Source: Squalus acanthias (taxonomy: Eukaryota). Taken from it: a DNA stretch of 64,000 bases. The stretch spans positions 8,122,001-8,186,000 of the forward strand of contig CM059452.1 of the NCBI GenBank assembly GCA_030390025.1, in the 5' to 3' direction. Within the stretch, counting starts at the first letter, position 1. Each line of letters begins with the position of its first letter. This document shows positions 7,311 to 16,239 of this stretch, piece by piece. Under the pieces are notes generated by a model. The model was given only the letters and a program-made list of their open reading frames with translations. It did not search any database and was not told the origin of the DNA. Made by a program: the position numbers and the translations under genes.

Positions 7311-7610
7311 CTCGTATTTTTATTCCCCAGTCCGACCCACTTTGTCGAAACTGGCATTAGATTGTGCTGCTCCCCACCTCTGACTCGGTGATGGTTAACT
7401 GGCTGCTCAGGGTGTAGGTTCCCTTCTTGTTGAACACTGACGGGTAGGTCTTCAATCCAGTGGTGATCGGCTCTTTATCTTTCCTCCAGGAAAGGCTGGT
7501 GATTTCCGGGAAGTAGTCCATCGCCAAACAGCCGTAGGTGACGGGGCCGCCGGTGTTGGGTTGTTCACAGGAGGAGAGCAGGGCGTAGAGGGTGGGAGGA
7601 GACTGTGTCG
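7311..7610 (-). pseudogene. IGHM: Immunoglobulin mu CH1 exon with in-frame stop
   Basis: ttcccag| acceptor, |gttagt donor, 300 bp; [63 protein letters not shown] at 7357-7359 replaces the Tyr before the second Cys. Confidence 0.9.
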
Positions 7611-8510
7611 CTGGGAAAGAATGGCCAATTGAACAAGTTAGATTCTGTAATCCGTGTTTATAACATAAGCAATCAACTCGAAATTTGACTACAGGATAAA
7701 CTCATGCCATCATTATCCGATCAATAGCTACATCGGCATTTGAGCTTCTGTCAGTTCCATCATAAGCACCTGTCGATCCCCTGGTCAGGAACACACCTCT
7801 CTGTCCCCGAGCTCTATCACATTACACAAATAAGAACCTTTTCACGTCACCACAATAAATTATCTTTCATTGGCTCATAAAATAGAAGAGCAGAGACGTT
7901 TTCCTGCTATTTCGGCCAGCATTTATTTCTCAATCAACGTCACTTCTGGTCATTTATTTCATTGCAGTTTTTGGAAATTTGCTCTGTGCCAATTGAGTGC
8001 TGCGTTTCCCTACAAAACAACAGTGACTACACTTCAAAAGTAACAGCGTAATCCACGCTTATAAAATTAGCGAAAATACTCAAAACTTGATGAACACAGA
8101 ATTTCCACTGCCTAGTTTCTAAGATTCAAGCTGTAGATAAATCGGGATTGATGAGAATCTATTTCTTTCCCTGCATGTTTGAGGAAGACCGATGTACTTC
8201 AACGCACTGTGATTTGTGCTCTATCCCATTCTATTGAATGGACGTCTCCTGAGTTTTCTCCTCCTTCCCACTCAATTAATAATCCGCGTTCAATACGGTT
8301 CCAAAATCCGGTTTATTGAAGTTTCTCTTTAAATGCTCCATTTCATTTAGCAAAGTAGCTTTCGACCTCCCACCAGTGAGAACAGGCGCTGCTTTCCGGG
8401 TCGTTACAGTCACTTCTTGTTGCTATTTGTACCGAAAATTATCTAAACATCGGGACAGGTTTCTTTTCTAAATATCTAATATTGGCAATCCTTCAACATT
8501 ATAAATCTGT

Positions 8511-9530
8511 AGGAGGCAGAGAGTAGTGGTGATCGGATGTTGTACTAACTGGATAAAATGATGCAGTGGGTCCCCCATGGATCGCTATTAGGACCATTGT
8601 TGTTTATGTTATATAAAAATGACCTGGACTTGGGGATAGTGAGCAAAATTTCGAAGTTCGCAGATGATTCAAAACTTGTTCAAGTAGCAAATAGTGAGCA
8701 GGATAGTAACTGTCTTCAGGGGGAAATACACAGACTGGTGAAATAGAGAGGCACATGGCAGATGCAATTTAATGTGGATAAGTGTGAAGCTATGCACTTT
8801 GGGAGTAACAACGTGGAGAGACAGTATAATCTAAATGGTACAATTTTGAGGCGATGCAAGAACAGAGAGACCTGGAATGCATATTAACAAATCGTTGAAG
8901 GTGGCAGGGCAAGTTGATAACGCTGTTAAGAAAGCGTATGGGATACTTGGCTTTATAAATATGGGCATTGAATATAAGAGAACAAGGAAGTTATGCTAAC
9001 CCTTTGCAAATCACGGGTTAGGCCTCAGCTGGAGTATTGTGCACAATTCTGGCACTACAATTTAGGAAGGATGACAAGGCCTTGGAGAGGGTATAGAGGA
9101 GTTTTAACAGGATTATACCAGGGATGAGGAACTTCAGTTATGTGGAGAGATTGGAGAAGCTGGGATGTTCTCCTTAGAGCAGAGAAGTTTAAGGGGAGAC
9201 ATAATAGAGGTATTCAAATTTATGGGAGGTTTTGACAGAGCAAATAGGCAGAAACCGTTTCCTCTGGCAAGTAGGTCGGTAACTAAAGCTCACAGATATA
9301 AAATAATTGGCAAACAATCTAGAGGGTAAATTGGGGTAATGTTTTTCACACAGAGGGTTGTTAAATTCTGGAATGCACCAGGCAGCTGGACATGTATTGA
9401 AGAGAACTCATTTGCAGGGTTACGAGGAAAATGCTGGGGTGTTGGACGAAATTGGACAGCTCCGTCAGAGCCGGCACAGGCAAGACGGGCCGAATGGTCT
9501 CTTGCTGTTCGGTAAGGTGCTATGATTCTG
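8511..9530 (+). mobile_element. CR1 LINE RT/3' fragment (degenerate)
   Basis: VPHGSLLGPLLF..ISKFADDSKL and downstream CR1 motifs. Confidence 0.85.
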
Positions 9531-10239
9531 CACGACTCAGCGGAATTAGTTCTTCTCGATTTAATGGAAGGAAACGCTTCATAATGTTGAACACCTCTAT
9601 CAGATCTATTTTTATTGTTTCTTATAATGAAAGAGGATATTTAAAATAAAGGGATCTGAGCAATTTGACGCGAATTAGTCAATCGGTTACTGTTATAAAG
9701 ACTTAAAGCTCATAGTGAATGACGTCCCATCGCAGGCTGACTGTTTCTCTTTAAATGATTCACAGAAATGCAGCTCAGTGATTGTGAGCCTTGTGCTGTG
9801 ACCCAGTCCAATAACAGCAACTCGGCCGTATTTGTCCCTTTTCAAAAAACAATTGAACCAAATAATGTTTTTCAAACATAAGATTCCCATGATGGTTATT
9901 TGGAGCGGGAGTGTCGACATTCTCCATTTAAATTGTCAAAATAACTTCCAGCCTCCCATCAGATCAGAACAGGCGCTGCTTTCTGGAGCGTTACAGTCAC
10001 TTCCTGAAACTGTTTGTTCTGAAATTGAGCTCAGGATCAGGCCAATCTCATTCAATCATTATTGGACAATCAAAATATTTAAATTCATTAAAATTTGGGC
10101 ATTTGTTTCAGAAAGAATGTTAACACCAATTAATGTGCGTTGTTCCATCTGGGCAATGGAACAATTTATTTTTTTATATCTGGCTAGATTACTGGTTAGA
10201 TGCAGATTAAGGTTCCTTGGAGACTGCCTGACCAAGCAC

Positions 10240-11225
10240 CATAATGTCAGATACAGCACGGATAAGATAGAGTAACGCTCGCTCTGCACTACCCTGGCTG
10301 TCAGATCAGGTATAGCAAAGGTTGGGTGCAGGGTGATGCTCCCTCTACACTGTCCTGTCAGACACTCCGGGTCAAGTATAGCAAGAGATAGATATCTTTT
10401 TAGACTGTCAGGTAAGATTAAGGCGGATTAGATAGAGAAAACAACTCGCTATGCACAGCCCAGTCAAATATTCACGCATCACATGCAGCAGAATTTAGAT
10501 ACAGTGCAAAACTCCATCTACACTGCCCTATCAAACACTGTGAGGTTTAATGATACTCGATTTAGATGCAGATTAAAACTTTACCCATATTGTCCCATCA
10601 AACATTCCCAGCTCTAGTAGAGCAGAGTTTGGATACAAAATAAATGCTCCATAAAATGCGCTTTCAAATTGTCCAAGTTAGGTAAAGCACAATTATATAC
10701 AAAGTAAAGCTTCCCATACACTGTCCCATTAAAGCTTCCCAGCTCACCTATAGCACTGATTAGATAGAAGGTAAATCTATACTGAAGTTGTCCATCAAAC
10801 TCCACGTCCTTGTAAATAAGAGATTAGATCTCCCAGTGCACTGCCCATCAAACGCACTCAGGACAGGTACAGCACGGGTGAGATACAGAGTAAAGCTCCC
10901 TCCACACTGCCCCATCAAACACTCCCAGGTAGGTACAGCACGGGTGAGATACAGAGTAAAGCTCCCTCCAAACTGTCCCGTCAAACATTCCCAGGACAGG
11001 TACAGCACGGGTGAGATACAGAGTAAAGCTCCCTCTACACTGTCTCATCAAACACTCCCAGGGCAGGTACAGCACAGGTTAGATACAGAGTAAAGCTCCC
11101 TCCACACTGTCCCATCAAACACTCCCAGGGCAGGTACAGCACGGGTTAGATACAGAGTAAAGCTCCCTCTACACTGTCCCATCAAACACTCCCGGGGCAG
11201 GTACAACACGGGTTAGATACAGAGT
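10240..11225. repeat. 67-bp tandem repeat (degenerate on left, homogeneous on right)
   Basis: Unit GTACAGCACGGGTTAGATACAGAGTAAAGCTCCCTCTACACTGTCCCATCAAACACTCCCAGGGCAG. Confidence 0.9.
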
Positions 11226-15322: not shown

Positions 15323-15370
15323 CTGCAGTCACCGTCACCATGGTGCCTTGTCCCCAGTAATCGAGGTAGT
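15323..15370 (-). CDS. IGHJ: IgH joining segment JH (YLDYWGQGTMVTVTA)
   Basis: WGxG motif, |gtaag donor, preceded by RSS. Confidence 0.95.
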
Positions 15371-15409
15371 CACAGTGTTACATTCCCTGGGTTGGGTCAC
15401 ACAATAACC
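15371..15409 (-). other. JH recombination signal, 23-bp spacer
   Basis: Plus-strand CACAGTG (15371-15377), 23 bp, ACAATAACC (15401-15409). Confidence 0.95.
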
Positions 15410-15732
15410 GGCTCTGTGTAAAACAACAGAAATCCAACATTAGTTTAAATATTCACATCCCAGAGACAAATAAAGTCACGATGGATCTTCATAAAATGAT
15501 ACATGTGTTAATGGATACTTTTCACTCTTTATAAATAACCTGATGTTTTATATTTCACAGAGTAACCCATGAACAGTTAATCAAATCATCAACTGATCAA
15601 TGATTAATTATCACAGTTTATCCATATTAAGCTGTGCTAGTAGACAGTGCTGGACACAAATAGGACTTCACTGCATCTACAGTTGGATTGTGAAAACGAG
15701 CACTGACCCAGACTCACTCAATTGGTGCTGAG

Positions 15733-15760
15733 GGTTTTTGTATTGACAGTAACTGCTGTG
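15733..15760 (-). other. 12-bp-spacer RSS 3' of the joined V-D
   Basis: CACAGCA + GTTACTGTCAAT (12 bp) + ACAAAAACC. Confidence 0.95.
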
Positions 15761-16239
15761 CTCTCCTGCTGTTTTTTGCACAGTAATACATGGCGGTGTC
15801 TTCGGTTCTCAGATTATTGATCTCGATATAGGTTGTGGAAGTTGTTCTTGAAGGAATGATCCGGCCTTCGACTCCAGGCGCATAATAATTGGTATCCGAC
15901 GGCTTTCTGTAAGCAAGCAGCCACTCCAGCCCCTTTCCGGGAATTTGTTTAATCCAGTACATGTGGTGGCTGTCCAGACTGAACCCGCTCACTGAACAGG
16001 ACAGTTTGTGAGATTCTCCGGGCTTCTTCGACACAGAAGCCGACTGAGTCAGCACGATATCGGACCGGACATCTGTCAGTGAATGAAAAAAATGCAATTA
16101 CATTGTGGAACATTCACATCAATGAATAGAAATAAAAGCACAATATCTGAAGCTGTCTTCTATCGTGTCACTAAAGCCGTGAGGAATACTCACAGGCGAA
16201 GCAAGCCAGTAACAAACAGAGGCACGGGGCAAGTCCCAT
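15761..16239 (-). CDS. IGHV: IgH variable gene, IgW-like, germline-joined to a D-like tail (leader 16194-16239; V(D) exon 15761-16072)
   Basis: Leader MGLAPCLCLLLACFA|YVRS, 121-bp GT-AG intron, DIVLTQSASVSKKPGESHKLSC..WIKQIPGKGLEWL..EDTAMYYCAK-NSRR; open frame; TTTAAATA TATA-like element ~90 bp upstream. Confidence 0.9.

Follow-up and report, generated by a model that had tools for sequence, protein, structure and literature searches.

In the horn shark (Heterodontus), a monotypic second VH gene family arranged in clusters is described in the accessible text of Hinds-Frey et al. 1993 (PMC2191167), and Groups 6-8 of nurse shark appear as pseudogenes in the accessible part of Malecek 2008. The subfamily analysed here, which we name VH-II, resembles the horn shark family, as far as that partial description allows comparison, in that a divergent VH occupies IgM-type V-D-J-C clusters beside a main family; it differs in that the horn shark family is given as monotypic, whereas VH-II has 12 copies in this genome, eight of them on one contig. 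We take the horn shark family to be IgW-like, to have a nurse shark counterpart and probably to correspond to VH-II, and we likewise assume that nurse shark Groups 6-8 correspond to VH-II and are IgW-like; protein searches retrieved no sequence named as belonging to the horn shark family or its nurse shark counterpart. The gene in the window, by which we mean the whole stretch of 64,000 nucleotides analysed, is probably an orthologue of this known divergent VH cluster, a possibility that the first-pass annotation had raised.

Elasmobranch IgM clusters that are already joined in the germline (VD-J or VDJ) are attributed to RAG activity in germ cells in the portions of the literature at hand (PMC5192425, PMC6795676) and, like the window gene, are joined partly or fully. 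Nurse shark IgM1gj, as excerpted there, is fully joined and lacks Cmu2, whereas the window gene is VDD-J and retains Cmu2, which rules out IgM1gj as its identity; Cmu2 is also present in both VDJ-joined VH-II members checked. Excerpts of two further papers (PMC4279169, PMC12227049) report somatic switching between IgW and IgM in nurse shark, describe IgNAR as a NAR-TCR V moved to an IgW cluster and hold that linkage of IgM, IgW, IgNAR and TCR alpha/delta favours V/C swaps between loci. As described in those excerpts, both switching and IgNAR resemble VH-II clusters in placing the V of one locus on the C of another. Nurse shark switching is, however, reported there as somatic, with joins after VDJ, whereas in VH-II clusters the boundary is part of the germline sequence and falls between V and D1, so that D and J are those of IgM. 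No description of the VH-II expansion or of the homogenisation edge at D1 was found in the literature searched, the main primary papers being outside its reach.

A germline-joined IgM minicluster

The features of the gene are collected in Table 1. Splice sites are canonical at the leader, V, J, Cmu1 and Cmu2 exons, and Cmu3, Cmu4 with the secretory tail, and the TM exon lie past the left end of the window. On the 3' side of the V exon there is no 23-bp signal; D1-like bases are followed instead by a D2-type 12-bp signal 0.4 kb from the J signal, and the gene is a germline VDD-J join. The first-pass annotation mentions neither this join nor the stop in Cmu1. The junction of the paralogue L002 is nearly the same, and a paralogous cluster 300 kb off, in which Cmu1 is open, shares 95% identity with the window cluster over 16 kb.

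Table 1. Coordinates of the joined cluster, numbered from the first letter of the window
Feature	Position	Strand	Comparison or remark
Gene	contig G000:C29, window = 8,122,001-8,186,000	-	
Leader exon, IgW-type (MGLAPCLCLLLACFA), GT donor	16194..16239	-	leader comparison
Leader-V intron	16073-16193	-	absent, to the base, from run contigs (X11, X19)
VH exon, frame open, IgW-sister subfamily, named VH-II here	15774..16072	-	trees, identities
Germline V-D1-D2 junction remnant, 13 bases, D1-like; D2 nearly all trimmed	15761..15773	-	D1/D2 of 6 clusters compared
12-bp-spacer RSS, type identical to 3' RSS of IgM D2	15733..15760	-	
JH 23-bp-spacer RSS	15371..15409	+	
IgM-type JH (YLDYWGQGTMVTVTA), GT donor	15323..15370	-	J same as canonical cluster L016
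Cmu1 exon, in-frame TAA at 7359-7357 ahead of second Cys	7311..7610	-	
Cmu2 exon, open	2286..2603	-	beyond the span 7311..16239 of the first-pass annotation

The backbone is that of an IgM minicluster. The C1-C4 domains are 59-89% identical to three named IgM chains, i.e. nurse shark Igmu (P0161), AAA50817 (P0162) and horn shark Igmu (P0181), and 28-43% identical to IgW-type chains; AAA50817 is listed as IgM in the accessible part of PMC12227049. All four Cmu exons, the secretory tail and the TM exon are nearest Igmu, with a CH1 tree run in addition to the identities. D, J and recombination signals are of IgM type, in joined form in the window copy, and in the unrearranged relative L003 they are the same as in the canonical clusters L014 and L016. 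The architecture of an IgW cluster, with at least six IgW C exons, an IgW J and IgW flanks, is not that of the window gene. The first-pass annotation had read J, CH1 and CH2 as IgM, and this assignment held for all three, including the CH2 exon outside its span. The intron between Cmu1 and Cmu2 (window 2720-7200) consists of about 4.4 kb of a 38-bp tandem repeat and is much shorter in one canonical cluster.

The V exon belongs to an IgW-sister subfamily

The leader follows the IgW pattern (MGI.PYLCVLLLCL) rather than that of IgM (MRSAISLSLLL), and the V exon is 56-62% identical to five IgW-type V and 40-52% identical to 18 canonical IgM V. The IgW references were picked by architecture, none being named IgW by its source: four are carpet shark models with a V and at least six C domains, and a further one is a cluster with six C exons on contig C284 of the same genome. 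The third C of the C284 cluster matches PDB entry 4q9b, a constant domain of IgNAR, as expected if the C domains of IgNAR and IgW are homologous, which the consulted part of PMC4279169 bears on. PDB sequence searches with the window V and with P0115 returned engineered or mammalian antibodies only, and an ESM Atlas search returned generic V-set clusters only.

A first, quick V tree of 73 rows was redone with 39 rows after removal of the long-branch V at C911:373726 and of near-duplicates. In this tree, which includes bony-vertebrate VH, the VH-II clade has support of 100/96 and the grouping of VH-II with IgW-type V 99/94, and a constraint uniting VH-II with IgM V and the tandem IgM-like V was rejected (AU p=0.028); the V trees span 98 columns and include five to six IgW-type V, four of them from carpet sharks, without holocephalan, ray or lungfish V. 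The window V falls outside the main IgM VH family and within the IgW V clade, as a separate sister subfamily. The claim of the first-pass annotation that leader and V are related to IgW rather than to IgM is borne out by these identities and trees: every motif that it quoted can be read from the minus strand, and neither a grouping of V with IgM VH nor one of C with IgW was seen. The discordance between V and C is real, and the gene is a chimera by ancestry.

Part of the resemblance of VH-II to IgW is ancestral, because its FR1 motif KKPGESHKL also occurs in VH of sturgeon, gar and lizard. The FR3 end of VH-II (RTEDTA) is IgM-like yet resembles bony-fish VH too, and judged by this likeness it may be ancestral.

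A tandem V array on contig C911 sits in the IgM V clade, separate from VH-II. This array (G000:C911:373726-519378) comprises about 30 Ig-like V exons at about 4-kb spacing with 23-bp signals, is TAILV-like and has no D or J signal between the V exons read; one very divergent VH stands at its start. TAILV as an identity for the window gene is ruled out by the gene's own J and Cmu exons.

VH-II across the genome

Among 150 scored genome matches, 12 are 74-100% identical to the window V; these are followed by the C284 IgW V (66%) and then by ordinary IgM V, which reach at most 54%. Eight of the 12 VH-II members are on contig C29, and two others are possibly alternate-haplotype copies of one of the eight. 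In 10 members a Cmu1 of the same orientation follows downstream at a distance of 7-10.3 kb, and these members are interspersed with ordinary IgM clusters; of the other two, one is cut off by N past D2, and the other lacks a C exon for about 26 kb. The 12 members comprise unrearranged V-D1-D2 (two), VD1-D2-J (one), VDD-J (four) and VDJ (five), with six junction types. L003 is a fully unrearranged V-D1-D2-J VH-II cluster with intact signals. Genome matches to Cmu1 at 75% identity or above number 47, of which 40 exons were fetched and paired with V by position and strand, two having no V assigned.

The VH-II-Cmu1 linkage is found in 10 separate clusters on four contigs. That the window gene is an assembly artefact, or a somatic switch product caught in the assembly, might be thought of in a repetitive region of near-identical clusters, the more so as somatic IgW-V/IgM-C switching is reported for nurse shark (PMC4279169, seen in excerpt). 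This explanation is exceedingly unlikely given that the linkage recurs in those 10 clusters, among them the unrearranged L003, that V and J lie 0.4 kb apart in continuous sequence and that 16 kb of a paralogue match at 95% identity.

Several other members and neighbours merit description. L008, L009 and L011 (G000:C29:8940087 and two possible haplotype copies of it) carry a VH-II whose VDJ is joined in frame in the germline; the copy on C29, which also possesses Cmu1-4 and TM, is a candidate pre-formed antibody. L010 (G000:C988:405556) and L012 (G000:C1142:535868) form a VH-II pair that is fully joined and nearest P0003. In L010 the J donor is not GT; L012 is interrupted by a stop in CDR3 and lacks C exons in its vicinity. 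IgW-type CH1 exons were matched on C284 only, where five of them (G000:C284, 564809-802464) compare with only two V found; one of these V is frameshifted and represents a second IgW V family, and Cw2 of the cluster with the intact V is apparently frameshifted.

Between 32790 and 63950 the window also contains ten V exons that are TCR alpha/delta-like (typed by eye), in both orientations and several of them broken, at about 32.8, 33.8, 41.2, 48.7, 51.1, 55.5, 58.9, 60.7, 61.8 and 63.6 kb, most with 23/22-bp signals. The V at 63.6 kb has a near-copy some 15 kb beyond the left end of the window, which suggests that the amplified unit is an IgM cluster plus a TCR-type V. The S. canicula gene model P0157 likewise has similar V sequences after IgM.

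Relatives in catsharks and splicing

VH-II is joined to Cmu in public catshark records. Two Scyliorhinus torazame genes with consecutive locus tags and contigs of equal length are a VH-II (scyTo_0014239, 82%) and a Cmu (scyTo_0014240); these S. torazame records (GCB60864.1 and GCB60865.1) and UniParc UPI0002C15539 represent catshark IgM with the VH-II subfamily. The UniParc record P0168 is a complete secretory VH-II-CDR3-J-Cmu1-4 chain that shares a 90% cluster with the catshark Cmu scyTo_0014240, and P0003, a record of 119 residues, falls inside VH-II. Catshark IgM with VH-II thus has the same V clade (100/96), leader type and Cmu partner as the window gene; the V record from catshark seems to be unrearranged and the chain in P0168 is complete, whereas the window copy is VDD-joined with a stop in Cmu1.

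Because the same V subfamily stands on Cmu in the catshark records, the exchange is old. A recent, lineage-specific recombination between a single IgW and a single IgM cluster could draw on the sharp boundary upstream of D1 but is contradicted by these records; moreover, the window V is 62% identical to the IgW V of its own genome and 79-82% identical to P0002, P0003 and P0168, its flanks are unalignable to IgW and there are 12 copies, all of which makes such an event highly improbable.

Contigs from runs X11 and X19, whose RNA status is presumed, skip the leader-V intron exactly, with 10 and 20 differences, so relatives of the window V are spliced. V-J joints in run contigs have a short side of 24-29 letters (60 in one, from a DNA run), and none was assigned to VH-II; J-to-Cmu1 loose ends in contigs are common to all IgM clusters and so were not assigned to VH-II either.

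Two edges

Two edges separate the V cassette from the IgM backbone: the old edge coincides with the 3' end of V, and the young one marks the limit of D-J-C homogenisation. This follows from a switch of diagnostic sites at the V end, a separate jump in identity upstream of D1 and Cmu1 exons that are not sorted by V. In the comparison of diagnostic sites, in which the IgW side consists of two genes only, 31 are IgW-like and 11 IgM-like in the V exon up to nt 240, against 4 and 9 at nt 241-335 and 11 and 28 in the non-coding nt 336-420. BLASTN of the unrearranged L003 extends to +387 against IgM and to +331 against IgW. Beyond this comes a stretch that cannot be aligned, and from +668, a short way 5' of the D1 signal, L003 is 93.5-97.8% identical to a canonical IgM cluster; in 50-base bins identity rises at this boundary from 50-76% to 86-100%, with 42-68% in a shuffled control. 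The window copy is more diverged from canonical IgM, at 84% over the first 3 kb. On the 5' side, the promoter and leader intron of L003 align with neither canonical IgM nor IgW, so the 5' crossover cannot be located. The first-pass annotation had proposed that flank alignment would place the crossover; IgM-like DNA is present 3' of V, but the 5' flanks match neither class and those of IgW are unalignable. The 23-bp spacer after V is near-identical in IgW and canonical IgM clusters and different in VH-II (L013, L016 and L003 compared).

Cmu1 exon identity is 96.6% within VH-II clusters, 97.2% within canonical clusters and 96.8% between them. A single clade of nine VH-II Cmu1 was rejected (AU p=0.0013, exon only). 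It was also rejected in a tree of exon plus intron (p=7e-78), whose long branches probably reflect misalignment of the intron, and we therefore rely on the exon-only test. The match of L003 to IgM past the D1 edge and the failure of Cmu1 to sort by V type point to a putative ongoing homogenisation of D-J-C beneath two V cassettes. We tentatively entertain, as a possibility well short of an even chance, a broader reading in which clusters consist of two exchangeable modules, a promoter-leader-V cassette, of which one form would be a capture from IgW, and a D-D-J-C backbone, which would undergo repeated swapping or conversion between clusters at one fixed edge immediately 5' of D1.

Discussion

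The data on V, backbone and relatives lead us to conclude, with reasonable though not full confidence, that the window gene is an IgM minicluster whose V cassette belongs to an old IgW-sister subfamily, which an ancestral shark likely acquired on its IgM backbone by transfer from an IgW cluster, and that this copy is pre-joined and likely a pseudogene. Its status follows from Cmu1, in which TAA replaces the Tyr preceding the second Cys. This is the sole in-domain stop among the 40 Cmu1 exons translated; with the constant-region frame closed in this way the gene does not qualify as functional, and because of the in-frame TAA the window copy is probably a pseudogene. In contigs from public sequencing runs, the single perfect piece at this site starts one base short of the TAA.

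As to direction, the protein tree that includes the second, frameshifted IgW V places VH-II as sister to IgW family 1 (95/90) and rejects monophyly of IgW V (AU p=0.016). IgW V are paraphyletic around VH-II in this tree, which fits IgW as the donor. In the DNA tree both IgW V of this genome group together (95/95) as a clade sister to VH-II, which speaks against a settled direction; IgW would be the favoured donor. The alternative is that no transfer from IgW took place, VH-II being either an ancient IgM V lineage that was the source of IgW family-1 V or, like IgW family-1 V, a descendant of a common V from before V and C were partnered. The DNA tree is compatible with this, as are the IgM-like non-coding DNA directly past the V signal, the unalignable IgW flank and the occurrence of KKPGESHKL in sturgeon, gar and lizard VH, by which the look of IgW is partly ancestral. 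Given that the clade of VH-II with IgW-type V is supported in a tree that includes bony-vertebrate outgroups and that the protein tree nests VH-II within IgW V diversity, we regard it as unlikely and favor the transfer from IgW.

For that transfer we suggest the following scheme: (i) in a common ancestor with catsharks, an IgM D-D-J-C backbone would have received a leader-V cassette of the IgW lineage by one old recombination or conversion whose 3' edge would lie between the conserved FR3 end and the V signal, and linkage of IgM, IgW and TCR alpha/delta (PMC12227049, in the part consulted) may have helped; (ii) VH-II clusters would later have been amplified together with other IgM clusters; (iii) unequal exchange or gene conversion would keep D-J-C near-identical and halt where homology ends, just upstream of D1; and (iv) germ-cell RAG activity may have produced the at least six joined forms. 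Intact VH-II members would be ordinary IgM with a second V framework. The gene had been proposed to be a fossil inter-cluster recombination; an ancient transfer stays the best reading, but it is no lone fossil, as there are 12 copies and catshark relatives on Cmu, and the window copy is broken.

The window gene is a member of an old, partly described lineage and likely reflects an old exchange rather than a new event. The surprise is limited to that extent, the window copy being probably dead and its V lineage already on IgM in public records. More generally, V and C of shark antibodies have separate germline histories, which cluster counts or trees of C exons hide, and a transcript of IgM that carries an IgW-like V is not, taken alone, evidence of somatic switching. 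Should the two-module reading be true, module swapping would stand as the germline equivalent to isotype switching, an IgW-derived V would have spread to about a quarter of the IgM clusters of this genome and the IgM repertoire would have gained a second framework.
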